A stretch of DNA of 64,000 nt from the NCBI GenBank assembly GCA_964551605.1, contig CAZKCV010000001.1, positions 136,898 to 200,897 on the forward strand, in the 5' to 3' direction. Position numbers and translations under genes: made by a program. Below the pieces are notes generated by a model. That model saw only the letters and a list, made by a program, of their open reading frames with translations, had not been told where the DNA came from and searched no databases. This DNA comes from an uncultured Gammaproteobacteria bacterium (GTDB lineage Bacteria > Patescibacteriota > Microgenomatia > Daviesbacterales > UBA10151). Positions 15,105-39,098 of the stretch are shown piece after piece (the stretch's first letter is position 1; each line of letters starts with the position of its first letter).

Positions 15105-16068
15105 CTGCCACAGTTAACTCTGCTTTAATTACCGGATGCGGATTGTAGTTTTCTAAAGTCACCAGTTCCGGCTTAAAATCATCAATCGTTTTTAAGCTTT
15201 TATCTATTTTTACAGTTGGGAAAGGCTTTGGTTTTCTTCTAATCTGTTCTTTAACCTGAGCTATATGGTTTTCATAAATATGAACATCACCAAAGGTATG
15301 AATAAATTCCCCCGGTTCATAGCCGGTGATCTTAGCCAAAACCACAGTTAATAAAGCGTAACTGGCAATATTAAAAGGCACCCCCAAGAAAACATCACAA
15401 CTTCTGTGATAAAGCTGCAGCGACAGCTTTCCTCCTCTTTGATTAACCTGAAACATATTGTGGCAAATCGGGAAATGGGAAGTATCTTCATAGGTGGCCA
15501 TTGAATAAAGGTATTCCGGATTCCAGGAGGTGACAATTAAATTCTTGGCATCCGGATCTTCTTTTAGCTCCCGGACTATCCATTTTAACTGGTCAATAGT
15601 CCGGGAGCTTCTGGTGGGCCATTTCCTCCACATCTCTCCGTAAATCCTCGGCAACTCCCCCCATTTTTTTGCAAATTTCTCATTCGTCCTGATTTTTTCT
15701 ATAAACTCTTCTTTAGATAAGAGTCTAGTATTTGTTTTCCTTAACTCTAGATTCTTGACTCTTGACTCTTCTTTAAGCTTATACATCTTATACGGATAAT
15801 CATCCCAGATATGAACATTGCGGTCTACCAGATACTTAATATTAGTTTGTCCGGAAAAGAACCAATACAACTCTTCCAAAACTCCTTTCCAGTAAACTTT
15901 TTTGGTAGTTAAAAGCGGAAAACCTTTAGAAAGATCAAATCGGATTTGGCGGCCGAAAACACTATACAGCGCCACATCAGTCCCCCGGTCAATTTTTTTA
16001 ACGCCATTTTTAAGAATGTCTTTTAGTAAATCCAGATATTGATATTCTTGATGCCTTACCCTTGCCAT
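15076..16068 (-). CDS. thyA: Thymidylate synthase (ThyA type)
   Basis: ThyA N-terminus and catalytic-Cys region. 330 aa with a Lys-rich insertion encoded by a cttgact tandem repeat. Confidence 0.85.
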   Translation of the reverse strand: MARVRHQEYQYLDLLKDILKNGVKKIDRGTDVALYSVFGRQIRFDLSKGFPLLTTKKVYWKGVLEELYWFFSGQTNIKYLVDRNVHIWDDYPYKMYKLKEESRVKNLELRKTNTRLLSKEEFIEKIRTNEKFAKKWGELPRIYGEMWRKWPTRSSRTIDQLKWIVRELKEDPDAKNLIVTSWNPEYLYSMATYEDTSHFPICHNMFQVNQRGGKLSLQLYHRSCDVFLGVPFNIASYALLTVVLAKITGYEPGEFIHTFGDVHIYENHIAQVKEQIRRKPKPFPTVKIDKSLKTIDDFKPELVTLENYNPHPVIKAELTVAGGYYGKAQN

Positions 16069-16230
16069 AAGTTCCTATTCTAACAGAACAGCGAAGTTTA
16101 GGTCAGTCAAAAAATGTTGAGGATTTTGTGCTGACTATCTCGATGACTTACCTTTGGTATCCACAAAATTCTCACAAGCGAGCAAGTCTCTACCGTGCGA
16201 ACGCTTTTTTGCGACCAAACGAGCTGTTCA

Positions 16231-16800
16231 TTATACTTGTCTCTCCTCCTTTTTCGGGCTGACCCTGCCGCCCTGGTGCTGACCCCGGTAGGAGACAGTT
16301 TTACCTTTTATTTTATGAAAAATAATATTACAAATCCTGGCTCCCAGCTGCAGTTTAACCGGAAAAGGGCTTAAGTTAGTTAAACCCATGGTCAGCTGTC
16401 CGCTGTAACCGGGATCGGTTTTTGAATTTAAAAGCAACAGTCCGGCCCGGAAAAGCGAAGTCCTGGTGTGCACTATCGGCATTAAATCCAAAGGCGTGTT
16501 GATTATTTCTACAGTCTGAGCTAAATAATATTCTCCGGGTTTTATTACAATCCAGGGTTGCTCTTCTTTTTCCTGCTGAAATTTAGCTACCTCTTTTGTC
16601 TTAACTCCCTTTCTACTGCCTAGTGCCTGTTGCCTGTCGCCTTCAATAAATGCTCCTCCTTTTATGATCTTATGAACAGCTCCTAAACGAAGGTCAATCC
16701 CCACCCCTTCCGGATTTTTCAAATCCCGGTGGCCCAAATTCTTAATTAGGGAATGTTTTTTTATTCTTTTGTGAATTTCATCTAACCCGAGTACGGACAT
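16231..16800 (-). CDS. dCTP deaminase/dUTPase-fold protein (paralog 2)
   Basis: DPGYSGQLT...GARICNIIF motif of the Dcd/dUTPase trimer fold. Confidence 0.6.
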   Translation of the reverse strand: MSVLGLDEIHKRIKKHSLIKNLGHRDLKNPEGVGIDLRLGAVHKIIKGGAFIEGDRQQALGSRKGVKTKEVAKFQQEKEEQPWIVIKPGEYYLAQTVEIINTPLDLMPIVHTRTSLFRAGLLLLNSKTDPGYSGQLTMGLTNLSPFPVKLQLGARICNIIFHKIKGKTVSYRGQHQGGRVSPKKEERQV

Positions 16801-17425
16801 TTTTTCTCCCCATGATATTTGATACTTCCGGCATCTTACTTCCCCCGTATCTGTTATTAGGACTCTTTTTGTAAGATCTTTCTACCGGAGCTGCCAGCTT
16901 TTCAAAAGAAAAGGCACAGATCGGACTGCCTTCATAAATTACTAACTTCTTGCCTTTTAAGAAAGTACCGAATTCCAAAACCGGATGACCATCCCAGCCC
17001 GGATCAAACCTGGCAGCAGTTGAATGCACAACTACCCCTAATCTAGCCAGGGAACTTTTTCCATGCAGGTGTCCGACAATATTATCCGGTAAAGTTAACC
17101 TTTCATAAGTCGTGGCAATTACAAAATCATGCTCTGTCAGAATAAAGGGTTGGCCTGGTTTTAACTCCACTAACCTCATCATAGATTCCATATCTTCTTT
17201 GGTAGCATACCTGGTATCGATAGTATTTAACCCTTCATCAGTAAAAACCCGCAGTTTATTACCAAGGTGGAAATCCACTGTCACCTCATCTACGCAATCT
17301 TCCCAGTCTTTTGGTAGCGGGTCTATTTTAATAATTCCCTTTTTTATATGTTCCCTTAAAGCCCAGTCAGGAAGGGTGCCTAAAATATCCAAATCCGCAG
17401 ATCTTTTAGAAGTTTTCTTTGGCAT
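16778..17425 (-). CDS. dcd: dCTP deaminase
   Basis: GKSSLARLGVVVHSTAARFDPGW motif. Overlaps its downstream paralog by 23 nt. Confidence 0.7.
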   Translation of the reverse strand: MPKKTSKRSADLDILGTLPDWALREHIKKGIIKIDPLPKDWEDCVDEVTVDFHLGNKLRVFTDEGLNTIDTRYATKEDMESMMRLVELKPGQPFILTEHDFVIATTYERLTLPDNIVGHLHGKSSLARLGVVVHSTAARFDPGWDGHPVLEFGTFLKGKKLVIYEGSPICAFSFEKLAAPVERSYKKSPNNRYGGSKMPEVSNIMGRKNVRTRVR

Positions 17426-17458
17426 AAGCTAAGATCCTAATGAAATTAGACCCTTTTT

Positions 17459-17932
17459 TCAAGTGGGAAGATTTGAAGGATTCATTACCGCACCCATTGT
17501 AGTTCCATACGCAGATAGCTGCTCCGGGGTAGGAGGACCATTATTTTCCCAAGAGATGCCTCGACCGCCACGTAAACTGTAAATATTGGCAACAATCCCA
17601 TCTTTTCCTGGATCTAATCTGAGATATCGACTGCTCTGCTCTCCTATAAAAATCAACATTCGTGATTCCGACAGTGGTCTGCGGCCAATCGCAACAACAA
17701 AAACGTCCTTTAACTCTTTACTCCGGGCTTGAGTTCTTTCCCATAACGAAAGGTGGTTTTCATCGATCAATTTAGCAATGAGATCCCAAACTAACGGTTT
17801 AATACCCAGAGTCAAAATACTAACACGTATTCTTTCCCTCCGCCCCCACTTCGGCACTCCTATTTCTACCCCCGCCAATAACTTAGCGCTATCACTATGT
17901 AAACTACGTAGTATCTCTGTTTCTGCAATCAT
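17459..17932 (-). CDS. Hypothetical protein embedded in the dTMP-synthesis cluster
   Basis: 157 aa, no recognisable motif. Confidence 0.4.
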   Translation of the reverse strand: MIAETEILRSLHSDSAKLLAGVEIGVPKWGRRERIRVSILTLGIKPLVWDLIAKLIDENHLSLWERTQARSKELKDVFVVAIGRRPLSESRMLIFIGEQSSRYLRLDPGKDGIVANIYSLRGGRGISWENNGPPTPEQLSAYGTTMGAVMNPSNLPT

Positions 17933-17980
17933 TTATGAAAAAAATACTATAAGTTTAACTGTTTGTCAAGTGGAGAGATT

Positions 17981-18631
17981 TTATTTTATCTCTTCCAATA
18001 TAGACAGTAATTCTTGCTGAATTTCTTCGGGAGACTTCATTTCCCCTTCTTTCATACAATCAACAACATGCCAATTTGTTTCTTTTTTAGATAATTCTAA
18101 ATAGATTTTATTTGCCTCTTCCAGGTGCTTGATGCTTTCTTCATGAAGATCAGATAATCTGCTGGCAACATTTTTTTGTCCGGTCTTAGGAGCAACCTTT
18201 AAAAGAATCGTTAAGTCTTCTCTTGGCATCCGGTTGGTTTGGTATTCCAATGTGTCTAACCAGGAAATAAATTCTTCCCTTTGATTCCCGGCCAGAATGG
18301 CCCCCATGTGAGCTTTATTGGCAGAAACATACCTGTTAGCCAAAACTATATTTCCTTCATTTAGCCATTTTTCAATCTCAGGTTTTGCCAAAAGCCGGTC
18401 CCCGGCAAAGGCTAAAGAGATAAGGTAGGGATTTACTTCCTTAAGGGAACCAAATTCACCTTCCAGGTATCTTGTCACTAAATCCGCATAAATATTATCT
18501 CCGTATCTGGGAAAACTGACAGCCTCCCAGGCGACGCCTTGCGAGGCTAAATATTCTTTTAACAACTCAACCTGGGTACTCTTGCCTGATCCGTCAATCC
18601 CCTCCAATACAACTAAGGATCCTTTTTTCAT
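17981..18631 (-). CDS. tmk: Thymidylate kinase
   Basis: P-loop LEGIDGSGKST and the dTMP-kinase lid region. Confidence 0.85.
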   Translation of the reverse strand: MKKGSLVVLEGIDGSGKSTQVELLKEYLASQGVAWEAVSFPRYGDNIYADLVTRYLEGEFGSLKEVNPYLISLAFAGDRLLAKPEIEKWLNEGNIVLANRYVSANKAHMGAILAGNQREEFISWLDTLEYQTNRMPREDLTILLKVAPKTGQKNVASRLSDLHEESIKHLEEANKIYLELSKKETNWHVVDCMKEGEMKSPEEIQQELLSILEEIK

Positions 18632-18647
18632 CTGAGGCGGGTATAAA

Positions 18648-18911
18648 TTATGAGTAAGGAGAAAAACCCTCTGCTGTTATATCTCCTCTGACACCATTTT
18701 GGGTTCCTATCATACACAAATCTCTCTTCATGTATTCACTCCGCTCGTCCAAATTCACTGGACAGCTATCCTTTTTGTCACAAGGCAGGCAAAATTGCTC
18801 AAGTCGTTTTTCTAATTTATTTCCGGGTAGCCCAATTGACCTGGCAAATCTGCCTCCTCCTGAAACCAAAACTCCTCCAACTAATCTGCTGTCCCGCTCT
18901 TGTGTTGGCAT
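18648..18911 (-). CDS. Hypothetical small Cys-rich protein (may be non-coding)
   Basis: 87 aa with a CLPC...C cluster. Lies in the 320-bp tmk-pyrG spacer. Confidence 0.25.
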   Translation of the reverse strand: MPTQERDSRLVGGVLVSGGGRFARSIGLPGNKLEKRLEQFCLPCDKKDSCPVNLDERSEYMKRDLCMIGTQNGVRGDITAEGFSPYS

Positions 18912-18950
18912 AGTGAGATTATACTATCAGACACCTTTATTTGTCAAAAA

Positions 18951-20586
18951 TCAGCTGATCTTTATCTTAGAAGCGGCTTTAATAAACCCTAAAAACAGCG
19001 GATGCGGGGAAAGCGGCCGGGATTTTAGTTCCGGATGGAACTGGGTCCCTATGAAAAACGGATGGTCTTTCAGTTCAATTATCTCCACCAACTTTCCGTC
19101 CGGTGAAGTTCCGGAAATGGTTAAACCTTTTTTCATAAATTGTTCTAAAAAGTCATTATTAAACTCAAACCTGTGCCTGTGACGTTCCGAGATTTCCGGC
19201 TTGCCATATAAACTGCGAACCAGCGACCCTTCTCTTAGCTTACAATCCCAGGCTCCTAATCTCATGGTGGCTCCGTATTCCCGCTTTAACATTTTCTTCT
19301 CCTGATCCGGCATGATGTGAATAACCGGATATTTGGTCTCCGGATCTATTTCCGTGGTGTGGGCTCCCGGAAGATCCAAAACATCCCGGGCATATTCCAC
19401 TACTGCAAGTTGCATGCCGTAACAAAGGCCAAAATAAGGAATGTTATTTTCCCTGGCATATTTAATTGCCTCAATTTTTCCTTCAATATCTCTTGACCCA
19501 AAACCTCCTGGCACAATAATCCCGTTAAATTGACGCAGGATATCAACATTATCCAGAATTTTGCCCGAATCGAGCCAGGTAATTTCCGGTTTTAACCCCA
19601 GAGTCCAGGATGCATGCTTAACTGCTTCAATTACAGAAATATATGAATCGGCTAAGGTGAAAGCTCCGGTAGAGAAGTACTTACCCACTATAGCAATCTT
19701 TACAATCTGTTTACCCTGAGCTTGTCGAAGGGCAGAATCAATTTTCCTGACAAACTCTTTCCATTCTTTCATATCCTCATTTTTCCTCTTTAACCCCAAT
19801 TTATCCAGCAACCTTTGGGCTAAATTCTGTTCATCAAATCCCAGCGGTACTTTATAAATACTGTCCACATCGGGAGCGGAAATAATGTCCGCCGGCTCCA
19901 GGCCGGTAGACATAGACAATTTTCTGATTCTCTGCTGATCCAGCGGCTTCTCAGACCGGGCCAAAAGTATATCCGGTTGGATACCCATGGCATTTAAGTC
20001 CCTAACAGACATCTGGGCCGGTTTGCTTTTCATTTCACCAATCGAGGCCGGAATAGGCAAATAAGTAATATGGGCATGGAGGACATCTGCCGGGTTTTTT
20101 AATTTCATCAGCCGGTTGGCTTCTAAAAACAGGATGTTTTGGTATTCTCCGGTAGTACCCCCGATTTCTATGACTACCACATCAGCATTACCAGCCCGGC
20201 CGGCTTCTTTAATTCTTTTGATAATTTCTTCGGTGACATAAGTCACCACATCCACGCATTCCCCGTCATATTCTAAGTTTCTTTCACGCTGGATGACTGA
20301 AAGATAGATTGATCCTTGAGTAGCAATGCTGTTTTTATTTAAGGATTCATTTAAAAACCGCTCATAATGACCTAAATCCTGATCAGTTTCCGTGCCATCA
20401 TCTAACACAAACACTTCACCATGCTCAATCGGATTCATGGTCCCGGCATCGACATTCAAATAGGGATCCATCTTTATAGGAGTTACTTTATAACCTGCTG
20501 ATTTTAAAAGGAGCGCAATCGAAGAGGTAGCAATACCTTTTCCAATACCACTAATAACACCACCTGTGACAAATATATACTTCATA
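18951..20586 (-). CDS. pyrG: CTP synthase
   Basis: Start trimmed to MKYIFVTGGVISGIGKG. The 23 track codons upstream read through a palindromic repeat. The C-terminal half is a GATase (class I glutamine amidotransferase) domain, inferred from position. Confidence 0.85.
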
Positions 20587-20597
20587 GCTGATTCTAG

Positions 20598-20658
20598 AGA
20601 TTGCTTCACTACGTTCGCAATGACGTCATTGCGAGGAGCAAAGCGACGAAGCAATCTG
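20598..20658. repeat. Family A element, rearranged half-copies, intergenic between pyrG and topA
   Basis: agattgcttc...cgcaatgac followed by gtcattgcgagg...gacgaagcaatct. Confidence 0.7.
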
Positions 20659-20701
20659 TTTACGGGGGATTTTTGAGGCCCTCAATATAATACCAAGAAG
20701 G

Positions 20702-22786
20702 CTACCGGATTGCAAGTATTGTTTCAGGAGCAACAACTTCTTTCTGATCTCCCTCAGGAACGACTGGCTTGGGTTTGGTCCAGCTGGCAAATTTACAGAC
20801 GGGCCAGTTTTTGCAGCCGTAGAAAGTTTTGCCCCTTTTAGTTCTTCTCACTACAATATCCCCGCCATCCTGGGGACATTTGGCGTTGACCTTTTCTTCC
20901 AAAGATTCCGTATGTTTACATTCCGGAAAACCGGAACAAGCCAGGAACTTCCCGAATCTTCCTACCCTAACAATTAATTCCTTACCGCAGTCGGGGCACT
21001 TTTTACCGGCAAATTGAACTTCCATTTTCACTTTCTGGGCTTCTTTCTTAGTCTGTTCTACCTTTTTCTCAAACGGTTGGTAAAAAGCCGCAATTGTGGG
21101 ACGCCACTGCCTTTCACCCCTGGCTATTTCATCTAATTCATCTTCTAAACTGGCCGTAAAAGTGTAATCTATAATATCAGAAAAATTTGCCATCAAAAAA
21201 TCAATTACCGTCATACCTAAAATAGTAGGTATAAATTTTCTATTTTCTTTTTCTACATAAAACCGCTCCTGAATGGTAGAAATTATCGGGGCATATGTTG
21301 AAGGCCGGCCTATACCCAGCTCTTCCAGCTTTTTAATTAAAGAGGCTTCATTATATCTAGGCGGAGGTTCGGTAAAATGCTGAGACGGTAAAAGCTGCAC
21401 CAAAGCAAGCAACTGACCCTCAGATAAAGTAGGCAAAACTTGCTTTTTTTCCTCCCCTTCTTCCTCCGCCTCTTTTCCGAAGAGCTTAAGCCAACCATCA
21501 AATCGAATCACGCTGCCGGTTGCCCGAAGTAAATATCCGTCATTGCGAGGAGTCTGCGACGAAGCAATCTCTTGATTTTCCGAGGAAGATTGCTTCGCTT
21601 CGCTCGCAATGACGTCGATGGTTGTTTGGTCCATAACCGCCTCATTCATCTGGCACGCCACAAACCTTTTCCAAATCAGATCATATAACCGTACATGGTC
21701 TTTATTGAAATTTCCCTTCCCCCTTAACCCTTCACCCTTTTCCCTTATGTCTGTTACCCGAATCGCCTCATGCGCTTCCTGGGCATTTTTTGATTTAGAC
21801 TTAAAAACCCTGGCAACAGAAGGCAAATAAGTTTTACCGATAAAATTCTCTATGTATGTTCTGACAGCCCCGATTGCCTGAGTTGATAAATTAACGGAAT
21901 CTGTTCTCATATAAGTGATCAGTCCGTGTTCATACAAGGCCTGGGCAAGCATCATGGTCTTTTTGGCTGACATTCCCAATTTATTAGCCCCGGCTTGCTG
22001 CAGGGTTGAAGTTGTAAAAGGCGGGTATGGGTAGCGGCGGACTTCTTTTTGTGTAATTTTGGAGATGTTATACTGAGCCTTTTCCAGATTTTTGACATGC
22101 CCATCCGCTTCTTCCTTATTTTTGATTTCCAGCTTTTTGCCATCTTTTTCTATTAAATTGGCAATGAAACTGTTGCCTGTTGCCTGTTGCCTGTTGCCTT
22201 CCAGCTCTACCTCAATATTCCAATATTCCTCCGGCTTAAAGGCCTTTATCTCCCTTTCCCGTTCCACTATCAGCCTTAAAGCTACTGATTGAACCCGGCC
22301 GGCAGATAAGCCCTTTTTAACCTTTTCCCATAAAAGCGGTGAGAGTTTATAACCCACTAATCTATCTAAAACCCGTCTGGCCTGCTGGGCATCAACCAGT
22401 TTAAGATCAATAGGCCGGGGGTTTTCAAATGCCTCTTTAATGGCATCCTCAGTAATTTCATGAAAAACCACCCGCTTGGTATCTTTAGAATCATTTAATA
22501 CACCGGCTAAATGCCAGGCAATTGCCTCTCCTTCCCGATCAGGGTCTGTGGCTAGCCATAAAGACTCCGCTCTCTCAGCTACCTTCTTTAATTCATTAAC
22601 CCTTTTTTTCTTATCACGGGGAATAATGTATTTAGGATCAAAATTATGCTCAACATCTATTCCAAGCTCGGATTTCGGCAAATCCCGGATATGGCCCATT
22701 GAAGCCTCAATTTGATATTTATCACCCAGAAACTTTTGAAGTGTTTTCGCCTTAGTCGGTGATTCAACAATTACTAAATTCTGCAT
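20702..22786 (-). CDS. topA: DNA topoisomerase I with C-terminal zinc ribbons
   Basis: Toprim N-terminus and multiple C4 zinc ribbons. Carries in-frame repeat insertions. Confidence 0.9.
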   Translation of the reverse strand: MQNLVIVESPTKAKTLQKFLGDKYQIEASMGHIRDLPKSELGIDVEHNFDPKYIIPRDKKKRVNELKKVAERAESLWLATDPDREGEAIAWHLAGVLNDSKDTKRVVFHEITEDAIKEAFENPRPIDLKLVDAQQARRVLDRLVGYKLSPLLWEKVKKGLSAGRVQSVALRLIVEREREIKAFKPEEYWNIEVELEGNRQQATGNSFIANLIEKDGKKLEIKNKEEADGHVKNLEKAQYNISKITQKEVRRYPYPPFTTSTLQQAGANKLGMSAKKTMMLAQALYEHGLITYMRTDSVNLSTQAIGAVRTYIENFIGKTYLPSVARVFKSKSKNAQEAHEAIRVTDIREKGEGLRGKGNFNKDHVRLYDLIWKRFVACQMNEAVMDQTTIDVIASEAKQSSSENQEIASSQTPRNDGYLLRATGSVIRFDGWLKLFGKEAEEEGEEKKQVLPTLSEGQLLALVQLLPSQHFTEPPPRYNEASLIKKLEELGIGRPSTYAPIISTIQERFYVEKENRKFIPTILGMTVIDFLMANFSDIIDYTFTASLEDELDEIARGERQWRPTIAAFYQPFEKKVEQTKKEAQKVKMEVQFAGKKCPDCGKELIVRVGRFGKFLACSGFPECKHTESLEEKVNAKCPQDGGDIVVRRTKRGKTFYGCKNWPVCKFASWTKPKPVVPEGDQKEVVAPETILAIR
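21539..21613. repeat. Family A element in frame inside topA
   Basis: About 75 bp. Encodes VIASEAKQSSSENQEIASSQTPRND. Confidence 0.8.
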
Positions 22787-22832
22787 CTTACTTAATTAAC
22801 TCTCGAATAATTGTAAGGGAGTTGTCAATACA

Positions 22833-23090
22833 TCAAGTTTCAAAATCCTCATCCAGCACCTCCGGGTTAACTGAATCAAGTTCCTTTTGCAAATCAGTGT
22901 TACTGTCATATTTAATCTCTTTTGGTGGATTGAGCCTGGAAGATGGGAAAGGGGAAGTTTGTTGAAGAGAATCTTTTGAGGAAATAGGGCTTATTAAAGG
23001 CAAATGTTTCTGATTAGTGACAAAAAACACCACGATCGTTGTAAAAATTGTCAATACCAATATTATTAAAAAGGTCCTATTGTTTTTCAT
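22833..23090 (-). CDS. Small membrane-anchored hypothetical protein
   Basis: 85 aa, single N-terminal TM. Confidence 0.4.
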   Translation of the reverse strand: MKNNRTFLIILVLTIFTTIVVFFVTNQKHLPLISPISSKDSLQQTSPFPSSRLNPPKEIKYDSNTDLQKELDSVNPEVLDEDFET

Positions 23091-23091
23091 T

Positions 23092-26408: not shown

Positions 26409-27487
26409 TTCTTGCAGTATATCCCAGCTCCCAAGCTCTCCACAAGTCCTGAAATCTCCATTTTTAACAAGAGGGCGGAAATTTTTGGGGAAGGAAATTT
26501 GAGTTCCCTGCCAATCTCGTCAATATGCCGGTTTTCATTCTCTAATGCAGCTAAAACTTTTCTCTCCTCTTCCGAAAGATCTCTTTCGTTCTTGACTCTA
26601 GACTCCAGACTCTTGATTCTATTAATTCCCAGCTCCTCCAAAATTTCATCCGGGCTAAAGACGGCTCTGGCCCCTGCTTTAATTAAATCAATCGGGCCTT
26701 TTGATAAATGTGAAGTAATTGGACCGGGGACGGCAAACACTTCGCGCCCCTGCTCCAAGGCTAACCTAGCAGTAATAAGCGAGCCGGAATCCTCTGCTGC
26801 TTCGATTACTAACACGCCCTGCGATAAACCGGAAATAATCCTGTTCCTGGCCGGAAAGTTACCCGGCAAGGATGGGTAATCCGGTGGAAACTCGGAAATA
26901 ACTGCACCGAAACCCTCCGCAATTTTTGCGGCTAGATTGCGGTTTTCCGGAGGAAAAACATTATTTAAGCCTCCACCCAAAACGGCAATTGTCTGCCCTT
27001 GTTGAGCAACAGCTGTGGCGTGGGCTTTGGCATCTACCCCGCGGGCCAGTCCTGAAACTATAGTCAAACCCGCTTCTACCAACCCTCTGGTAAATTGCTC
27101 CGTGGCCACCCTGCCGTAACCGGTTATTTTCCTGGTTCCCACCACCCCGATCGCTTTTTTATCCCAATCCGGTTCGCCTCTATAAAAAATTACCACCGGT
27201 GGATCATAAATTTGGGCCAATAATTTTGGGTAACTCTTATCAAAAATGGTTACCCACTTGATTCCGCTATCAGCAATCTTCTCGGCATAACTTTCCGGCT
27301 CCAACTTCCTCCGTGTTTCCACCAGCAAATTGACTGTGTTCCTGAAAATCCCCAACTTCAGTAACTCCTCCCCATTAGCTTCCCAAGCCAACTTGGGGTC
27401 TTTGAAATATTCTAGAACTGCCCGGAGCCTAATCGGCCCTAAACCATTAATAGAGTGCAAAGCTAAAAGGTATGGAATATTATTCAT
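26405..27487 (-). CDS. dprA: DNA processing protein DprA/Smf
   Basis: GLARGVDAKAH..., GGGLNNVFPPEN and NFPARNRIISGLS Rossmann-like motifs. Confidence 0.85.
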   Translation of the reverse strand: MNNIPYLLALHSINGLGPIRLRAVLEYFKDPKLAWEANGEELLKLGIFRNTVNLLVETRRKLEPESYAEKIADSGIKWVTIFDKSYPKLLAQIYDPPVVIFYRGEPDWDKKAIGVVGTRKITGYGRVATEQFTRGLVEAGLTIVSGLARGVDAKAHATAVAQQGQTIAVLGGGLNNVFPPENRNLAAKIAEGFGAVISEFPPDYPSLPGNFPARNRIISGLSQGVLVIEAAEDSGSLITARLALEQGREVFAVPGPITSHLSKGPIDLIKAGARAVFSPDEILEELGINRIKSLESRVKNERDLSEEERKVLAALENENRHIDEIGRELKFPSPKISALLLKMEISGLVESLGAGIYCKK

Positions 27488-30693: not shown

Positions 30694-31533
30694 ATGGCTG
30701 CAGATCAAACTTTTCTAGATAAATTAAAGGCTAAATGGAAACAAAACAAATTCGTCTGCGTGGGTCTGGATAAGCAAAGCTTGAGATCTAAAGATCTTAA
30801 GCAAAGCTTGCCATCTAGCGATGGTAAAGGCAATTTTGAGTTTTACAAGAATATTATCGACCAAACTTTTGACCTGGTACTCGCTTATAAACCGAATATC
30901 GCATTCTACGAAGCTGAAGGCACTGCCGGCTTGGAAACCCTGAAAAGAACCGTCCAATATATCCGGGAAAAAGATTCGGAAATGCCGATAATTTTGGATG
31001 CTAAAAGAGGTGACATCGGCAGCACCAATGAAGCCTATGTGAAAGCCATCTTTGATGATTTAGGGGTTGACGCAGTCACTATTCACCCGTATCTGGGTAA
31101 AGAAGCAGTAGAGCCGTTTTTGCGCAGAACTGATAAAGGAATTATCGTTTTAGTCAGAACATCAAACCCCGGGGCCGGAGAATTCCAGGATTTAGAAGTT
31201 TACCCTGAGCGAAGTCGAAGGGGAAAACCACTTTATCAGGTTGTGGCTGAGCATGTAGCCAAAGGATGGAATCAAAACAACAATTGTGCCGTGGTGGTTG
31301 GAGCTACGTATCCTGATGAAATCAAAAAGGTCCGTGAGATTATAGGAGACATGCCGATTTTAGTACCGGGTATTGGAGCCCAGGGCGGAGATTTAGAAAA
31401 TACCCTCAAAAACGGCCTAAACAGCCAAAAACAGGGTTTAATTATTTCCTCCTCCAGGGGAATTATTTTCGCTCCCAACCCCAGGGAAGCTACTTTAAAA
31501 CTACATCAGGATATAGTATCTTTACTCTCATGA
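30694..31533 (+). CDS. pyrF: Orotidine 5'-phosphate decarboxylase (type 2)
   Basis: ILDAKRGDIGSTNEAY active-site region. 279 aa. Confidence 0.8.
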   Translation: MAADQTFLDKLKAKWKQNKFVCVGLDKQSLRSKDLKQSLPSSDGKGNFEFYKNIIDQTFDLVLAYKPNIAFYEAEGTAGLETLKRTVQYIREKDSEMPIILDAKRGDIGSTNEAYVKAIFDDLGVDAVTIHPYLGKEAVEPFLRRTDKGIIVLVRTSNPGAGEFQDLEVYPERSRRGKPLYQVVAEHVAKGWNQNNNCAVVVGATYPDEIKKVREIIGDMPILVPGIGAQGGDLENTLKNGLNSQKQGLIISSSRGIIFAPNPREATLKLHQDIVSLLS

Positions 31534-32177: not shown

Positions 32178-33264
32178 TTTTTTCTTTGACCCCTTTGGCC
32201 AAATAGGGGTTCCACATGGCTCCGGTGGCACTCATTACAGCATCTGCTCCGGCATTTTTGAATTCAAAATAATCCTCAGCCTTAGTTACGCCTCCGACAC
32301 CAATTATTTTTATATCAGCCTCGGCTTCCTGTCTAAATTTAGCCAACCTTTCTACCATATCCAATCCCGCCCATTTAATGGCAGTTCCGCAAACTCCTGA
32401 CCGGAGCCTATTTTTTCCCGGTAACGCCTGATTACCCACCTGGTCCACCACTTCTGCAGAAATAGTGTTAATAGCTGCAATTCCCTGGGCATACTTACCG
32501 GCTATCTCTATTAGCCTCTTTAAATCTGCATCATTTTGGTAATAACCCACTTTTAAAATCAACGGAATATCCCCGATTTCTTTTCTAATGGCCTTAGCCA
32601 CCTTTTCCGTCATTTCCAGGTTATAGCAAACTAAACCTTCGTTGCCGATATTAGGGCAGGATAAATTAGCTTCCAGCAACTTGGCACCGGTTTCAGCTGA
32701 TAATTTGGCAGCCAGGGCATAATCAGCCACAAATTCTTCCGGAGTTTGATTTTCCCTGACAGTTCCCATAAAGCTCAGCACTAAAACCTGGCCTTTGCCG
32801 GCATAAGTAATGGCCGCTTTAACATCTTCCTGCCAGACACTTGGCTCTTTGGAAGGCACCCCAAAGGAGTTAGTAATGGATAGAGGCTCAGAGTAATTAT
32901 TATCTGCAATAAGCTTAGTTTGAGCTTTTGCAGGGGTCAAATCACCTTCGATTTTTACAGCCAAAATATTGGGAAAAGGGTGACAGGGAAAGGTGCTGCT
33001 TCTGACAGTTTTATAAACACAAATATCAAAGCCTTTTTGAAAAGCGCTCTTGCAAAACTTAGCATTTATCAGTGGACCTGCCGGAATTCCGAATGGAGTA
33101 AAAACTTTTTGCCCTAAAAAATCCTCTGTTGGTTTACCCTGAGTCCCTCGACTTCGCTCGGGATCTTCGGCTTCGCCTTCGGCAAAAACTCCAAACGGCC
33201 CCTGGTCATAATTTTCTTCATAGCTTCTATTAGGATCATAAAAGGGAGTTTGCAACATGATCAA
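32170..33264 (-). CDS. pyrD: Dihydroorotate dehydrogenase (class 1-like, Cys active site)
   Basis: LSCPNIG active-site region, C-terminal TIM-barrel FMN motifs IGVGGV. Confidence 0.75.
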   Translation of the reverse strand: MIMLQTPFYDPNRSYEENYDQGPFGVFAEGEAEDPERSRGTQGKPTEDFLGQKVFTPFGIPAGPLINAKFCKSAFQKGFDICVYKTVRSSTFPCHPFPNILAVKIEGDLTPAKAQTKLIADNNYSEPLSITNSFGVPSKEPSVWQEDVKAAITYAGKGQVLVLSFMGTVRENQTPEEFVADYALAAKLSAETGAKLLEANLSCPNIGNEGLVCYNLEMTEKVAKAIRKEIGDIPLILKVGYYQNDADLKRLIEIAGKYAQGIAAINTISAEVVDQVGNQALPGKNRLRSGVCGTAIKWAGLDMVERLAKFRQEAEADIKIIGVGGVTKAEDYFEFKNAGADAVMSATGAMWNPYLAKGVKEKIT

Positions 33265-33283
33265 ATTTTAACATATAAAAATC

Positions 33284-33374
33284 GTCATTGCGAGGAACGA
33301 GTCATCGAGTGACGTGGCAATCTTGATGTGGGATTCATCCGACCTAGATTGCTTCGCTAATCGCTCGCAATGAC
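33284..33374. repeat. Family A element, intergenic between pyrD and mreB
   Basis: gtcattgcgaggaacg...agattgcttcgctaatcgctcgcaatgac. Confidence 0.8.
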
Positions 33375-33393
33375 GTAAGGCAATAACTTTGGT

Positions 33394-34458: not shown

Positions 34459-34477
34459 GATGGGAGTTTAACATATC

Positions 34478-34972
34478 TTAAACTTTTAAGAAATTGCCCA
34501 CTATTAAACCTATGGCGGTGGCCAATCCTCCAATCACTAACATCTCGGAGGCGCTCCGGAAGGCTTTCTCCTGAACAATTTTGCCCTTAAAATAACCTAC
34601 TGCAAAAAGGGCTACCAGGGCACCTATTACACTGACAAACCTGGCTATTTCTACCGGTAAAATGATAAACGGCATAATCGGCACCATGCCGGCCAGAAAA
34701 TAGGAAACAAACATTAAAACTGCATCCATTAATAAATCGTCTTTATGCCTATGCCTTTTATCCATCTGGTGAACTGCTTTCTCGGAAGAATATTCACCGG
34801 CTGCCATGGAAGAAGCTTCCACGGAAATGGCTACGAAAGAAGCCAAAATAATAACTGCCTGGTTAGGGGCCCCGACTGAAATACCCACCACCACCCCAGT
34901 GGTGGAAACCAGCCCGTCCTGCAGCCCAAATATCACACTTCTTAAATAATCTTCATCTAATCTAATTTTCAT
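34478..34972 (-). CDS. VIT1/CCC1-family membrane protein
   Basis: GLQDGLVSTTGVVVG signature. Confidence 0.7.
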   Translation of the reverse strand: MKIRLDEDYLRSVIFGLQDGLVSTTGVVVGISVGAPNQAVIILASFVAISVEASSMAAGEYSSEKAVHQMDKRHRHKDDLLMDAVLMFVSYFLAGMVPIMPFIILPVEIARFVSVIGALVALFAVGYFKGKIVQEKAFRSASEMLVIGGLATAIGLIVGNFLKV

Positions 34973-35272
34973 TTAACTAGGATTAAACCTGAATTGCACT
35001 TGTAAAGAAGCTCCCAGAACCTTAGCTAACCTTTTGAGGAAGGAGAGTGAAGGGATTGTTCTGGCATTTTCCACCCGGGAAATCACTGATTGCTTGGTTT
35101 TCATCCGTTTAGCAATTTGAGCCTGAGTTAGACCTTTTTCAAGTCGCGCTTTAATAAGCGCATGAGCTATTTCAAATTCAAGCCGCGTTTCTTCAGCAGC
35201 TTCCTTGAACCCTGGTCTTTGCAATAGCTCCTTTTCAAAATCTTCCCACTTAACATAATTCAGCTTTTTCAT
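34973..35272 (-). CDS. HTH-XRE antitoxin-like regulator (HigA-like family)
   Basis: WEDFEKELL...KGLTQAQIA...TKQSVISRVE...PSLSFLKRLAKVLG. Paralog of the gene at 46533. Confidence 0.7.
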   Translation of the reverse strand: MKKLNYVKWEDFEKELLQRPGFKEAAEETRLEFEIAHALIKARLEKGLTQAQIAKRMKTKQSVISRVENARTIPSLSFLKRLAKVLGASLQVQFRFNPS

Positions 35273-35278
35273 AATTTG

Positions 35279-35307
35279 ATATTATCACAATTTTGCTATA
35301 ATTGCAA
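35279..35307 (-). promoter_or_regulatory. Sigma70-like promoter TTGCAA-N17-TAATAT placing the TSS at the start codon (leaderless mRNA)
   Basis: -35 at 35302-35307 and -10 at 35279-35284 on the minus strand. The start codon is about 7 nt downstream. Confidence 0.4.
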
Positions 35308-35419
35308 TAATCTAATTCGTCTTTTATGGTCTACTAATCTTTCTTCTGCTATCCTAATCTCTTTAGACAGAATCTGCCACTTTTCTCCCATAACCCCAGT
35401 ATATCAGGAAGAATTTTGA

Positions 35420-36853
35420 TTATTCTTTCTGATCTTCTCTATCAAGTATACCGGGATAAACAATGCTCGCTTGGAAGAAATTATCAACTTCCCTTTGACT
35501 AATTCCTTTCCTGCGGGCATCTAAAGAAATTATTCCGTAAGTTGCTAAAACAGCGGCATAAACAAAGGGCGTTGCAGCAATATTGATTAAATCCTCCCCT
35601 CTTCTTTTGATCTTATTATGCAATTTATTAAAATTTTTCAACCAAGCTTGTGATTCTTCTATCTCGCTTTGAGGAACTGTTATTACTTCGGAAGCATCTT
35701 CAATAGTTCTTTTCCCCAACATCCTGGCTAAACCAGCATGGCCTGATTTTATCAAAATCATAGGTACCAGCGTTCGCAGATCATCCCTGAAAGCAGGATT
35801 TTGACATCGGAAGTAACAACTGTATAAACAACCAGGACATCCTTCAACAGCTTCCTCTTTTTTCTTTCTCCACTCCTGACTTTTTAAACTCACACCCGTT
35901 TCAAAACCAGTTCTTATTTCTGAACAAACACCTACCTCTCCTTTTTCTCCTAATGCCCGTATATGGATAAACTGATCTTGCACCGAATCACATTTCCACA
36001 ATTTATCACTAGGATTCATAACCCTTTCTAAATAATTCCAGCCGTCAATTAGAAAACCTCCTTTTCTTAGTGGTTCCAATTTTTGACAAACCATTTTTAT
36101 TTGCTCTAAAGTAGGGACATTACTCTTAGTAGGCGCTGTCGAAAATCCCTGGCCGATTTCTTGAACTATTGATGTGCTAAAGAATACTCCATTTGCCGCA
36201 CAAGTCTTTGCTACTTTAGGAATAATATCAACTCTATCCTTGGTAAAAACAACGCTCACTGTTGGAACAATTCCCTCATTAGCTGCAGCTCTTGCCTTTC
36301 CTATAATACATCTTATACCAGCTTCAGTAGGAGAATGCAGGGAAAAGATTAAAAAATCCAATCCTACCTTTTTAAGTCTTGAGAGGTAAATTAAATTATC
36401 TAAATGATCTCCATTAGTGATGATGCTAGTAATCATACCTGAATTAGAAGCATGACCGATGATTTTTAATGCGTGATCTACGTAAGTATTACCTTCTTCT
36501 GTAATAAATGGGTCTAAGTTTTTCCTAAAATCTACGTACATTAAATTTGCCCCATTCAGGCACATTTGGTATCCCCCCTGACGTACTCCACCATCAAATT
36601 GACATCCTGCGAGAGATTCTCCCCCAACATATTGAAGAAACCTAAAACCCTCATCGTGTGCCCAATCTACTTGCTTTAAAGACTCAGCCACAGTAGAAAA
36701 TCTGCCAGTATTTTGCCTATTGTGCACATTGCAATAGCTACACGCTCTATTGCAGTTTGTAGGGCCTTCCATTATTGCCAAGCTGTGTCCATTTTTAGCA
36801 GCTTCATATGCTCCCCAGACTTTAGACACACCCTTTAAAACTTCTCTTAACAT
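35420..36853 (-). CDS. Radical SAM / SPASM-domain protein with C-terminal hydrophobic helix
   Basis: CNRACSYC (CX3CX2C) motif. C-terminal Cys cluster W-KC...GVC...GCPGCLYSCYFRC. Putative TM IAATPFVYAAVLATYGIISL. Confidence 0.7.
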   Translation of the reverse strand: MLREVLKGVSKVWGAYEAAKNGHSLAIMEGPTNCNRACSYCNVHNRQNTGRFSTVAESLKQVDWAHDEGFRFLQYVGGESLAGCQFDGGVRQGGYQMCLNGANLMYVDFRKNLDPFITEEGNTYVDHALKIIGHASNSGMITSIITNGDHLDNLIYLSRLKKVGLDFLIFSLHSPTEAGIRCIIGKARAAANEGIVPTVSVVFTKDRVDIIPKVAKTCAANGVFFSTSIVQEIGQGFSTAPTKSNVPTLEQIKMVCQKLEPLRKGGFLIDGWNYLERVMNPSDKLWKCDSVQDQFIHIRALGEKGEVGVCSEIRTGFETGVSLKSQEWRKKKEEAVEGCPGCLYSCYFRCQNPAFRDDLRTLVPMILIKSGHAGLARMLGKRTIEDASEVITVPQSEIEESQAWLKNFNKLHNKIKRRGEDLINIAATPFVYAAVLATYGIISLDARRKGISQREVDNFFQASIVYPGILDREDQKE

Positions 36854-36947
36854 AGAGGCTATTATCCCATAACAACAAAACTACCGCAAATAAAACTACT
36901 TGCCCCTATCTACCTCTCTCTGTTAGGATAGAAACGAATACAAGCCA

Positions 36948-39098
36948 ATGGTTAACATTATTCTGGATAGAATCATTCCCTACTCTTTTTATGCCCTCTT
37001 TTTCTTAACTCCCCTGGTTTGGTCATCTGCCAATCATGAGCTTTTTGAATATAACAAAATGATTTTAACTTATGGCCTCACTGTCATTATTGTAGGAGCC
37101 TGGCTACTTAAAGCGATTAACGAAAAACGATTAACGATCAAACGAACTCCCCTAGATATTCCACTTTTATTATTTTTGGGAGCCAATATCCTGTCTACTA
37201 TATTTTCAATTGATCCCCACACTTCTATTTGGGGCTATTATTCCCGTTCAAACGGCGGGCTTTTATCCATCATCTCCTACCTATTATTATATTGGGCGTT
37301 TGTTTCCAATATGGACTTTGAGAGAGTTAAACTTGCCTTAAAATTTGGCCTGACTTCCGGTTTTATTATTTCCCTGTGGGCAATTTTTGAACACTTTGGA
37401 GTTTCTCCGTCCTGTGTAATTTTAAGGGGGGAGTTTAATGCTTCCTGCTGGATACAGGATGTCCAGGCCCGGGTTTTTGCCACTTTAGGCCAACCCAACT
37501 GGCTGGCAGCCTATTTGGCTATGTTAATTTTCCCCACTTTGTATTTTGCTTTAACTGCTTCCCATAAACTATACGCTATACGCTATACGCTTATCGCTAT
37601 TATCTTCTACCTGGCTTTTACCTTTACTTATTCCCGGGGACCCACACTGGGACTGATTGGAGGAATGGCGGTATTTATTATTGGCTACCTCTTCTGGCAT
37701 CCTGAGGGCAAAGCCCGAAGGATCTCTGCTCTACGAAGTACTTATTTTGTAACATTTATTTCAGACCCTCACATTCGTGAGAGATTCTTCACTACGTTCA
37801 GAATGACAAAGCTAGGAGGTATTTTAATCTCTTTCTTAATAATCAACCTCCTCTTTGGCTCAGCCTTAACTTCATTTAGATTAATTTCCAAATTTGCTGC
37901 CCCGGCCAGGCCCGGGATAGCTCTCCCAACCTCAAGCGGCACCCAACTGGAGAACGGCGGTACCGAATCCGGTCAAATCCGATTTATTGTCTGGAAAGGT
38001 GCCCTGGAAATATTTAAACATTACCCGCTTTTCGGCTCAGGAGTGGAAACCTTTGCCTATGCCTATTACCAGTACCGGCCGCCGGAACATAATCTAACCT
38101 CTGAATGGGATTTTCTTTACAACAAAGCGCATAATGAATATCTGAACTACCTGGCTACCACCGGAATTGTCGGCTTTGGGACTTATTTGCTGGTGATTGG
38201 AACATTCATTTATTGGTGTATTAAAAAAATTTCTAAATCCGAATTACTAATTTCTAATCAAATCCCAAATCCTAAACCCCAATTAGGTCAATTAGAAATT
38301 AGATCAATTAGAAATTTAGTTCTTGCACTCCTTGCTGCCTATATCTCCTACTTAATCTATAACTTCTTTCTTTTCTCCGTTGTCATTATTGCCGTCTTTT
38401 TCTATCTACTTCCGGCCCTGGCCTTTGTTGCTGCAAATTCCACTATACCCTATACCCTATACCCTATACCCTACCTCTACCGGAGACCACTATATACCCG
38501 GGTAGCTAAAGGTCTGGTGATTTTTTCCATCATCTATCTTCTATATTCTATATTCCAGCTTTGGTATGCCGATACTTTATTTGCCAAAGGTGAAAAAGCT
38601 ACTGATGCCGGTAGACTGAGTAAAGCCTATGAGTTTTTAACCAGAGCCTCGGATATTAACAGGGCTGAACCGCTTTATCAATCAGAACTGGGTTTTGTAC
38701 AGGCACAGGCAGCTGCGGCTTTAAAAGATACTGATGCTTCCGCATCCGCCGATTTTAAGGACGATGCGGTTTCCCTAACTGAAAATGTCTTAGAAAAAAG
38801 TCCCCAAAATATTTCATTCTACCGGACAGCAGTCAGGACCTATTTTGAGCTTTCCCTGACAGACAATGCCTTCATCGATAAAACCCTGCAAACACTGGAT
38901 CAAAGCATAAAACTGGCTCCCACTGATCCTAAACTTTATTATAATAAAGCCTTAATTCTTGAAAGCATCGGCAAAAAAGAAGAACAAATTAGAGCTTTAG
39001 AAAAAGCCCTACAGTTAAAACCAAATTATCTGGAAGCACTGGCTCTTTTAAAAGAGGCTACCGGATCAGCCCGCCTGCCGGACGGGCAGGCTAAATAA
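36948..39098 (+). CDS. O-antigen ligase (Wzy_C)-domain polytopic membrane protein with C-terminal TPR repeats (PglL/WaaL-like)
   Basis: SRGPTLG and LFGSGVETF...HNEYLNYLATTGIVGF motifs, at least 10 TM helices, TPR-like tail. Confidence 0.7.
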   Translation: MVNIILDRIIPYSFYALFFLTPLVWSSANHELFEYNKMILTYGLTVIIVGAWLLKAINEKRLTIKRTPLDIPLLLFLGANILSTIFSIDPHTSIWGYYSRSNGGLLSIISYLLLYWAFVSNMDFERVKLALKFGLTSGFIISLWAIFEHFGVSPSCVILRGEFNASCWIQDVQARVFATLGQPNWLAAYLAMLIFPTLYFALTASHKLYAIRYTLIAIIFYLAFTFTYSRGPTLGLIGGMAVFIIGYLFWHPEGKARRISALRSTYFVTFISDPHIRERFFTTFRMTKLGGILISFLIINLLFGSALTSFRLISKFAAPARPGIALPTSSGTQLENGGTESGQIRFIVWKGALEIFKHYPLFGSGVETFAYAYYQYRPPEHNLTSEWDFLYNKAHNEYLNYLATTGIVGFGTYLLVIGTFIYWCIKKISKSELLISNQIPNPKPQLGQLEIRSIRNLVLALLAAYISYLIYNFFLFSVVIIAVFFYLLPALAFVAANSTIPYTLYPIPYLYRRPLYTRVAKGLVIFSIIYLLYSIFQLWYADTLFAKGEKATDAGRLSKAYEFLTRASDINRAEPLYQSELGFVQAQAAAALKDTDASASADFKDDAVSLTENVLEKSPQNISFYRTAVRTYFELSLTDNAFIDKTLQTLDQSIKLAPTDPKLYYNKALILESIGKKEEQIRALEKALQLKPNYLEALALLKEATGSARLPDGQAK

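Follow-up and report, generated by a model that had tools for sequence, protein, structure and literature searches.

Heptanucleotide repeat arrays occupy permissive loops of essential enzymes in Candidatus Daviesbacteria

The 64,000-nt stretch of contig CAZKCV010000001.1 analysed here (the window; positions 136,898 to 200,897) contains tandem arrays of seven-nucleotide units, several of which lie in frame inside topA, thyA, dprA, a dcd-like gene, and a gene for a Wzy_C (O-antigen-ligase-type) protein. Arrays of about 4.3 units (about 30 bp) are shown to occupy a few indel-tolerant kinds of place: surface loops, interdomain linkers, borders of membrane segments, and intergenic spacers. On balance, and with modest confidence, we read them as self-homogenising heptanucleotide microsatellites, accompanied by tiny mobile hairpins, that selection has filtered to permissive loops. 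The arrays are of a known kind, the heptanucleotide simple sequence repeats (SSRs) termed short tandemly repeated repetitive (STRR) or long SSR (LSSR) sequences. What is new is that a non-triplet unit writes loops of essential enzymes across a whole lineage of the candidate phyla radiation (CPR).

Period-seven excess in the window and its lineage

Exact period-7 repeats with two or more copies number 19 in the window, compared with means of 4.6-5.3 and a maximum of 11 in Markov simulations (order 1, 3, and 5). Four of these repeats have at least three copies, a class absent from every simulation. Period 7 stands alone among periods 4-15. Tandem Repeats Finder (TRF) reports 23 period-7 arrays, and exact runs extend up to 31 nt.

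Relatives were gathered by scanning species-representative genomes with TopA, and orthologs of topA, thyA, dcd, dprA, and pyrF were taken from the flanks of the fetched loci (L-numbers below; P-numbers denote Wzy-type orthologs). The nearest TopA relatives are Candidatus Daviesbacteria (Microgenomates, CPR), at 60-81% amino acid (aa) identity and with conserved synteny. All sequences are metagenome-assembled; the identities of the named repeat-bearing genes were confirmed with Pfam. Neither an exact-sequence cluster look-up nor a metagenome scan with TopA found a relative of the same species, the best match reaching 80-81% aa identity. The closest available pairs, L002/L005 and L036/L101 (93% identity), were used to follow turnover.

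An earlier reading of this DNA from its letters (the first-pass annotation) had suggested a tandem-repeat search over the genome, and the phenomenon does extend beyond the window. At TRF scores of at least 40, period-7 arrays number 10.9 per 100 kb in the window, 6.4 in Daviesbacteria, 4.2 in other CPR, and 0.4 outside the CPR; the Daviesbacteria loci (0.85 Mb) hold another 4.8 per 100 kb of period 14. An exact-run detector applied to 1.1 Mb of Daviesbacteria DNA finds a long tail for period 7 alone, reaching 37 nt and with a second mode at 30-31 nt; periods 5 and 6 end at 16 nt. The excess thus characterises Daviesbacteria as a lineage and, to a lesser degree, other CPR.

Open reading frames (ORFs) of at least 150 aa contain 167 arrays and clearly non-coding DNA contains 55. 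About 70% of arrays lie inside long ORFs, whereas density per base is about three times higher in non-coding DNA, which makes up about 10% of the total. Within ORFs the arrays are always in frame and free of stops. Their length has a mode at about 30-33 nt (4.3-4.7 units), both in ORFs and in arrays with stops in all frames. Units are diverse (133 canonical units among 272 arrays) and are also more alike than random 7-mers: identical pairs amount to 2.1%, versus 0.16%.

Hot loops of topoisomerase I

The 47 Daviesbacteria topA genes contain 66 arrays, 58 of which fall in four loops. All four hot loops are gaps or variable loops relative to Escherichia coli TopA (alignment to 4RUL), and all 47 genes align in one frame over essentially the whole query, through up to four arrays each. 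The features in topA of the window are as follows.

22170-22199, minus strand: loop 2, CTGTTGC x4.3, 100% identical (coding strand GGCAACA), encoding EGNRQQATGNS, aa 196-206
21711-21747, minus strand: loop 3, degenerate AAGGGNN x5 (TRF period 7 and 14), encoding REKGEGLRGKG
21538-21614, minus strand: loop 4, a palindromic element of about 77 nt (CGTCATTGCGAG...GAAGCAATCT...), in frame, encoding ...SSENQEIASSQTPRNDG (also given as ...EIASSQTPRNDG)

Loop 2 had been reported as four copies of ctgttgc encoding EGNRQQATG, and is present as such, in 4.3 perfect copies. It exceeds the corresponding E. coli loop by about 4 aa; in non-CPR enzymes the loop consists of 6 non-repetitive residues. Perfect arrays in some species correspond to degenerate versions of the same unit in their relatives. 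Degenerate GGCAACA occurs in L042 and L021; GAGTCAA is perfect in L022, as (GAGTCAA)4.3, and degenerate in L001, L008, L017, L036, and L067. Units of the GGGGAAA type are found in L012, L007, and L016.

The DNA of 40 orthologs at loop 3 reveals arrays of CAGTCGT, CAGGCAA, CAAATGT, or AAGGGNN. Basal Daviesbacteria have a non-repetitive loop here, and the crown-group arrays equal that loop in length. In L011, the unit CAAATGT is identical to the adjacent conserved flanking codons. The element in loop 4 accounts for 21 aa that are not in E. coli TopA (alignment to 4RUL and orthologs), and folds at -26 kcal/mol (z = -6.6). Array-bearing and array-free orthologs differ in length mostly by 24-33 nt.

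Palindromic units are also seen in topA of other species, where they add 10-40 residues. Loop 3 of L028 (11060-11140) carries a whole unit in frame, with AAATTCG arrays flanking a hairpin, and in loop 4 of L002 and L011 arrays of AGTCGTC form in-frame palindromic units (array, short loop, inverted array).

Arrays in thyA, dcd, dprA, and the Wzy_C gene

Several other genes of the window carry arrays that encode related or periodic peptides.

15753-15770, minus strand: thyA array, TCTTGAC x2.6 exact, or 4.4 imperfect copies from 15740, encoding ESRVKN, aa 101-106
15719-15771, minus strand: thyA element, a truncated copy of a palindromic element, arms AGAGTCA/AGAATCT ... loop AAAACAAA ... CTAGACTCT, encoding EESRVKNLELRKTNTRL
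16624-16642, minus strand: dcd-like gene, TGCCTGT x2.7 (coding units GGCGACA GGCAACA GGCACTA), encoding EGDRQQALG
26588-26620, minus strand: dprA linker, four degenerate units AGAATCA AGAGTCT GGAGTCT AGAGTCA, encoding RIKSLESRVKN (ESRVKN, aa 295-300)
37569-37600, plus strand: Wzy_C gene, CTATACG x3.3-4.6 (x3.3 exact at 37569-37591), in a transmembrane segment, encoding LYAIRYTLIAI
38228-38316, plus strand: Wzy_C gene, adjoining arrays of AATTTCT, CAAATCC, and AATTAGA, encoding KISKSELLISNQIPNPKPQLGQLEIRSIRNL, aa 427-457
38443-38473, plus strand: Wzy_C gene, CTATACC x4.4, perfect, encoding TIPYTLYPIPY, aa 499-509

The repeats and peptides that had first drawn attention are borne out at these sites: the TGCCTGT unit with EGDRQQALG in the dcd-like gene; ESRVKN in both ThyA and DprA; and, in the Wzy_C gene, three copies of ctatacg and four of ccctata, the latter with YTLYPIPY. 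A single shared hexapeptide is not significant alone in 64 kb. The case for a shared origin of the peptides is made instead by the periodicity of the DNA and by family-level tests.

The further proposal, that each stretch is a lineage-specific insertion, holds for part of the set when orthologs are aligned. It stands for topA (about 4 aa), for thyA, where the element adds about 9 aa relative to close orthologs, and for pyrF (below). It does not stand for Dcd, DprA, or two of the Wzy sites, where orthologs are of the same length or longer and are themselves array-encoded. In the dcd-like gene the stretch equals that of 18 orthologs in length, and the DNA of L042 is identical; the array replaces a loop whose length is unchanged. 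The dprA array, which lies between the Pfam domains DNA_processg_A (aa 72-276) and DprA_WH (aa 299-354), is likewise not an insertion relative to orthologs. At Wzy aa 208-218, length does not vary among the 45 orthologs displayed, and many of them have a peptide that looks as if it came from a repeat (SLYILHFTLLI, for example). At aa 499-509 orthologs carry like peptides (LYPIPYTLYPI, ILHSTFYILHF), and most are longer here. The stretch at aa 427-457 is a long loop insertion that, among the orthologs, is common only to P0014 and P0036.

In thyA, the loop is array-encoded in nearly every ortholog. The Pfam match to ThyA spans about 45 residues more than the profile, with alignment to long-form ThyA structures, and the loop probably lies within the insert that forms the 'small domain' of Lactobacillus casei-type ThyA.

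Concerted evolution and turnover

The dprA linker shows how such arrays change. In every genome examined it is a four-unit array of constant length and register, but the units differ (AGAGTCA, AAAGTGC, AAAGTTA, AAAAATC, AACAGGC, and AGGGTAC among genomes). Units within one genome differ at 1.33 of 7 positions. Between genomes, orthologous units differ at 3.46 of 7 positions and non-orthologous units at 3.48, whereas the flanking codons differ at 1.78 of 7. This is textbook concerted evolution.

Units are also shared among loci. Pairs at a distance of at most 1 make up 10.3% of unit pairs within genomes and 5.9% between genomes, and none of 500 label permutations reaches the observed value. The motifs common to topA and dcd, and to thyA and dprA, are instances of this within-genome sharing. 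Moreover, arrays are hot spots for length change: the two 93%-identical Daviesbacteria pairs show 34 indels of 4 nt or more, and 12 of these fall at arrays, which cover 1-1.6% of the DNA.

The arrays are not confined to genes. They occur in non-coding DNA, with units that are found in ORFs too, and their periodicity extends to every codon position. Together with concerted evolution, the indel hot spots, and a dispersed hairpin described next, these observations uphold the initial view that the shared peptides come from repetitive DNA and not from convergence of proteins.

Small hairpin and palindromic elements

The first-pass annotation had treated a motif in pyrF and pyrD as part of the same phenomenon. 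The list mixes at least two unrelated repeat classes, however: heptamer arrays and a hairpin with a GAGCGAAGTCGA loop. Two classes of small element, here called 'PERSR' and 'KQSLR', are components distinct from the arrays.

31201-31223, plus strand: pyrF PERSR hairpin, an 18-nt in-frame insertion, stem CCCT/AGGG, loop GAGCGAAGTCGA at 31207-31218, encoding YPERSR (+6 aa)
33144-33163, minus strand: PERSR hairpin at the N-terminus of pyrD, stem TCCC/GGGA, loop GAGCGAAGTCGA at 33148-33159, encoding PERSR
30772-30822, plus strand: N-terminus of pyrF, two tandem copies of AAGCAAAGCTTG plus hairpin, encoding KQSLRSKDLKQSLPSSDG; -11.9 kcal/mol, z = -3.7
14512-14545: copy of the AAGCAAAGCTTG element; others at L010:10604, L010:19526 (minus strand), L032:15291, L090:6610, L004:20261, and L104:6687 (minus strand)
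5078-5190 (dnaX), 20598-20660, 21538-21614 (topA), 33283-33375, 40223-40320, 62187-62230, and 63620-63715: sites of the CGTCATTGCGAG element

The PERSR class is a hairpin of 18-24 nt with a conserved 12-nt loop, GAGCGAAGTCGA (GCGAAG[T/C] core), inserted precisely in frame. What pyrF and pyrD share is this exact 12-mer, and both encode PERSR as had been claimed. The 19-mer quoted for them, ccctgagcgaagtcgaggg, is a composite of the actual sequences, CCCTGAGCGAAGTCGAAGGGG in pyrF and TCCCGAGCGAAGTCGAGGGA in pyrD, and the pyrD copy lies at about 33144-33163, some 15 nt away from the 33125-33150 first assigned to it. Nor is GCGAAG itself the common denominator: the hexamer is not over-represented in the window (28 found versus 20.6 +/- 5.0 expected), and the conserved unit is the 12-nt loop. 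Among 22 copies of this loop, 77% are flanked by stems of at least 3 bp that pair perfectly and vary in sequence from copy to copy, versus 2.3% in controls, and this covariation supports the hairpin. The two copies of the window fold weakly when taken one by one (z = -1.1 and +0.9).

The KQSLR class consists of AAGCAAAGCTTG, then a variable, compensating 5-bp stem, then CTTAAG-like bases; there are 13 copies. In L010 and L006 the element interrupts the heptamer array of topA.

In a third class, the elements are palindromes with heptamer arrays as their arms. Among 96 strong arrays, 19 have an inverted partner array at most 70 nt away, versus 3-7 in controls. One array-armed family (AGAGTC[AT]AGAATCTAGAGTCTAGG-AAAACAA-CTAGACTCT...) has six copies: three intergenic ones in the 22 kb of L042, and others in L104, L010, and thyA. 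The thyA copy aligns with the intergenic copies of L042, L104, and L010 over about 50 nt, and differs from the left-arm/loop pattern of the element at 2 of 28 positions. It lacks the right arm and no longer folds (z = 0.4). The commonest dispersed repeat of the window, by k-mer census, is also palindromic: the CGTCATTGCGAG element, about 77-100 nt (CGTCATTGCGAGGAG ... GACGAAGCAATCT / AGATTGCTTCG ... TCGCAATGACG), at seven sites. It is in frame in dnaX (...TPRNDD) as well as in topA. The larger elements have fold z-scores between -2.8 and -6.6.

The insertions are documented by orthologous sites that are filled in one genome and empty in another, the boundaries being exact and the ORF intact: 18 nt in pyrF, shared with L006 only and missing from the other aligned orthologs; 24 nt, a GAGCGAAGTCGA-loop hairpin, inside the dprA array of L002 and not in that of the 93%-identical L005; 27 nt in topA of L010 compared with L022; and the 9 aa of thyA. 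Insertion of the mini-elements (18-27 nt) is precise and leaves no target duplication that can be seen; the inserted lengths are multiples of 3 nt, and arrays are frequent targets. Loop 2 of topA in L010 equals the perfect array of L022 with exactly 27 nt of the AAGCAAAGCTTG element added and nothing duplicated. The idea that arrays are scars of insertion and excision with a 7-bp target duplication is ruled out in this one clean case, which has no extra unit.

Copies of the GAGCGAAGTCGA hairpin also recur around topA. In four loci (L006:9864, L030:9844, L039:12020, and L093:9941) an ATTGACA (-35-like) motif follows directly on their 3' side; three of these copies precede topA by about 60-160 nt, and the one in L039 comes just after the gene. 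More copies downstream of topA (L007:13222, L011:13157, L015:4559, L042:12592, and L084:12015) lie in surroundings that are strongly conserved (ggggagatctatagtcct...aggattttgaggccctcaatataat) and could belong to an unannotated RNA or a regulatory site.

Origin of the arrays

How might such arrays arise and persist? In the mechanism that we favour, replication slippage or template switching out of register, with a 7-nt step, would re-copy one unit over its neighbours. Copying would now and then take place between arrays at different loci, and small palindromic elements with array arms would carry arrays along. Purifying selection would weed out products that shift the frame, create stops, or disturb the fold; the survivors visible in genes would be arrays of about 30 nt in permissive loops. 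Because the arrays sit in such loops, the loops read as 7-residue periodic peptides (GNRQQAT, SQESRVK, KVQSAKC, and YPIPYTL) in unrelated enzymes. A protein-level function would not be needed, and the peptides may be tolerated by-products.

Several points weigh against this mechanism. A slippage event was not directly observed, and in the collections searched the genome of the window stands alone. Within essential genes, a step of one unit would break the frame; a route between in-frame states by multi-unit or length-neutral events is assumed. The slippage model does not explain the choice of a 7-nt step over one of 4, 5, or 8. The length mode of 30-32 nt is present in truly non-coding arrays too (16 of 55), and therefore frame selection is not its only cause. 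Orthologs differ in length mostly by 24-33 nt, not by the 21 nt expected of a three-unit expansion. Expansion by 21 nt under frame selection, considered as the sole cause of the 30-nt mode, fails on both counts. Finally, part of the arrays travel as arms of dispersed palindromic elements, which fits a transposition-like explanation as well.

That explanation, a possible one to which we lend distinctly less credence, takes each array for a discrete mobile module, a block of four heptamers and about 30 bp, found singly or as one of the two arms of a palindromic element of about 75 nt. A dedicated enzyme, element-encoded or of the host, would insert or replace modules in a transposition-like manner, and genic arrays would be whole or half elements. 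It accounts readily for the sharp length mode of 30-32 nt in coding and non-coding arrays alike, and for the difference of about 30 nt that typically separates array-bearing from array-free orthologs. An array-armed palindromic family dispersed in several genomes and found once inside thyA, the 20% of arrays that have inverted partners, the sharing of units within genomes, and the precise insertion of other tiny elements in the same genomes are all in keeping with it. However, the very high diversity of units is not, and the arrays have neither conserved termini nor target duplications. A transposase was not seen, though none was searched for. The L011 unit matches its local flank. Orthologous arrays hold their register and length while the unit changes by 1-3 substitutions that appear in all units; such in-register drift is a prediction of homogenisation, not of repeated insertion.

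A bolder version is more speculative still: arrays might be born as discrete modules of about 30 bp through a specific mechanism also at work in cyanobacteria and Xanthomonas. One candidate would be a 'stutter' of a polymerase or primase, governed by a built-in ruler; another would be an enzyme of a new class of miniature palindromic mobile elements with array arms. If this were true, modules of the CPR would routinely colonise and overwrite loops of essential proteins, and the four-unit preference seen elsewhere would be the mark of a generating mechanism and not of selection for G-quadruplexes.

We consider it unlikely that the arrays are functional nucleic-acid signals, kept by selection even in genes as an RNA or DNA structure or as sites for a protein that reads four heptamers, such as an OB-fold (oligonucleotide/oligosaccharide-binding) or cold-shock-type protein or a tetrameric regulator. 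The four-unit preference holds regardless of coding status, and in other phyla too (PMC4692102); CspB is reported to bind heptamer direct repeats, with one protein per unit (PMC4679880); and intergenic inverted pairs form stable predicted hairpins beside gene ends. Against this, the units are too diverse for a single reader protein and drift freely between species at a fixed site, single arrays have no predicted structure (z = -0.7 for the topA array), and most arrays lie mid-ORF in housekeeping genes.

The remaining explanations are each contradicted by specific data. Contingency loci, in which copy-number change of a non-triplet unit would switch genes (phase variation), are a very improbable reading: a unit of 7 is indeed not divisible by 3, and some arrays are in envelope genes (the Wzy_C ligase-type protein and the 5' end of a penicillin-binding protein gene), but most occupy mid-ORF positions in genes that are essential or have housekeeping roles (topA, thyA, dprA, dcd, dnaX, and tig), arrays keep their length from species to species instead of varying in it, and every one of the 47 topA genes stays in one frame. 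Convergence of proteins, whereby selection for flexible or hydrophilic peptides gave the same motifs in unrelated enzymes, is scarcely credible. A protein-level filter is evident, in that soluble enzymes have polar units and membrane proteins have units rich in Tyr, Leu, Ile, and Pro; yet the motifs are identical at all codon positions and recur with an exact period of 7 nt, non-coding DNA has the same units, and the peptides at one site may be wholly different between species while the periodicity of the DNA is kept. Least credible of all is an artefact of assembly or binning, since dozens of independent assemblies, made in different projects and with different assemblers, show arrays in frame at orthologous positions, even though all are metagenome assemblies taken without their reads.

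Relation to known repeats

Reports of heptanucleotide repeats in bacteria go back to 1990, and the repeats have been described as mainly intergenic. To our knowledge, both their origin and the choice of a 7-nt unit still lack an explanation. A literature search found no report of them in CPR or Patescibacteria. The canonical STRR units are CCCCAGT (STRR1), TTGGTCA (STRR2), and CAACAGT (STRR3). No tandem dimer of these three, of GGGAATC, or of TAACTGA occurs in the window, and the topA unit CAACAGG is one base from STRR3. The arrays resemble the STRR, Xanthomonas, and Nostoc heptamers in being dispersed tandem 7-nt units, with a period-7 excess, a preference for about four units, and a greater density in intergenic DNA. 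They differ from STRR-type repeats in their host group (CPR), in having many unit families rather than one to three, and in lying to about 70% in ORFs, including those of essential enzymes.

The small dispersed repeats (SDRs) of Nostoc are said to be structured elements of about 20-27 nt, present or absent at orthologous sites and associated with tandem heptamers. The 18-27-nt hairpin elements inside arrays of L010, L006, and L002 are reminiscent of them, but their sequences and phylum are different, they insert in frame into ORFs, and their association with arrays amounts here to a handful of cases. Rickettsia palindromic elements (RPEs) reportedly measure about 100-150 nt and lie in frame in housekeeping genes, at permissive surface positions where they do not inactivate the protein. 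The thyA element, the 77-nt element of topA and dnaX, and the pyrF hairpin likewise add in-frame peptides; RPEs, however, are not known to be built from heptamer arrays. The tandem repeats of Borgs, when within ORFs, reportedly have unit lengths divisible by three. With a unit of 7 nt, the reading frame here rotates through all three phases of the unit. Borg repeats are in other respects similar: they are fast-evolving tandem repeats within ORFs that add lineage-specific peptides, and they create disordered protein regions (PMC9879509).

Heptanucleotide repeats upstream of the Haemophilus hmw genes are phase-variable contingency loci (PMC8262952). These too are slippage-prone SSRs with a unit that is not a multiple of three; by contrast, the present arrays are mid-ORF in essential genes, their length is conserved, and frame-shifted orthologs were not seen. 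Among long SSRs, the heptanucleotide class is the most abundant in many bacteria, and polymerase slippage has been proposed for it (Mrazek 2007, as summarised in PMC4679880). As far as these secondary accounts go, units divisible by three are those tolerated in genes (Mrazek et al. 2007, via PMC4679880 and PMC4692102), and published heptamer repeats are under-represented in coding DNA (PMC4692102). The TAACTGA repeats of Beggiatoaceae have a single unit and are found mostly 5' of start codons (PMC4679880). With the long SSRs and Beggiatoaceae repeats, so far as they are summarised there, the present arrays share the favoured heptanucleotide, the proposed slippage, and sets of 2-6 copies; unlike the surveyed long SSRs, a non-triplet unit dominates inside genes.

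A four-unit preference of G-rich heptamers (GGGNATC and GGGGA(C/T)T) in Xanthomonas and Nostoc has been ascribed to G-quadruplexes (Rehm et al. 2015, PMC4692102). G-quadruplexes cannot explain the preference in the present arrays, whose units are not G-rich, and a four-unit preference does not need them.

In dozens of species, then, heptamer repeats write variable loops of topoisomerase I, thymidylate synthase, DprA, Dcd, and an O-antigen-ligase-type protein. This provides a mutational source for part of the lineage-specific insertions in CPR proteins. Orthologous hot loops of conserved genes offer a time series made by nature: the birth of arrays, their homogenisation, the turnover of units, and the insertion of elements can all be dated against the divergence of the flanks, which makes the long-standing problem of the origin of heptamer repeats open to direct study. 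There is also a caution for annotation and alignment: ESRVK, RQQATG, KVQSAK, or PERSR in CPR proteins is no evidence of homology or function.

Other arrays of the window

The remaining arrays lie in or near the following features.

1-70, plus strand: inverted array pair, GTATAGA and TTATACT, forming a long predicted hairpin downstream of the stop of ORF 74-670; fold z = -3.8
6122-6136, minus strand: dnaX, CTGACGA x2.1
8433-8457, minus strand: linker of trigger factor, CTGTCAC x3.4
12507-12600, strand not assigned: intergenic spacer of about 100 nt between two minus-strand ORFs, nearly all of it period-14 and period-7 arrays (AAGACTG x4.4)
37114-37138, plus strand: Wzy_C gene, CGATTAA x3.6, also period 14 (TRF)
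38533-38555, plus strand: Wzy_C gene, TCTATAT x3.3, encoding IYLLYSIF
56006-56084, plus strand: 5' end of the gene for a class A penicillin-binding protein, TACAATG x2.9 and ATTCTAC x4.4 (perfect)

The canonical unit of the dnaX array (ACGACTG) forms four-unit arrays in topA of eight other genomes. The arrays of the penicillin-binding protein gene are coding if ATG 55895 is the start, and belong to a 5' leader if the start is GTG 56087. They encode the peptide ILHSTFYILHF, which occurs also in the Wzy ortholog P0021.

A T-rich run follows the hairpin at window 1-80, which may be a terminator. Rfam, at gathering thresholds, matches three tRNAs and nothing else in the window. Trigger factor (7847-8926, minus strand) is a protein of 359 aa with the Pfam N- and C-terminal domains and without the peptidyl-prolyl isomerase (PPIase) domain; the junction of its domains is a low-complexity linker, partly heptamer-encoded (AGVQVTGDSGQQTAGGQAGSINFQGSQSGE).

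Metagenome-assembled genome records titled 'uncultured Gammaproteobacteria bacterium' (third-party annotation, TPA; L001, L004, L006, L008, L014, and many more) carry a TopA that is 70-81% identical to that of Daviesbacteria, with synteny in common. Judged by these sequences, their titles appear to be wrong.

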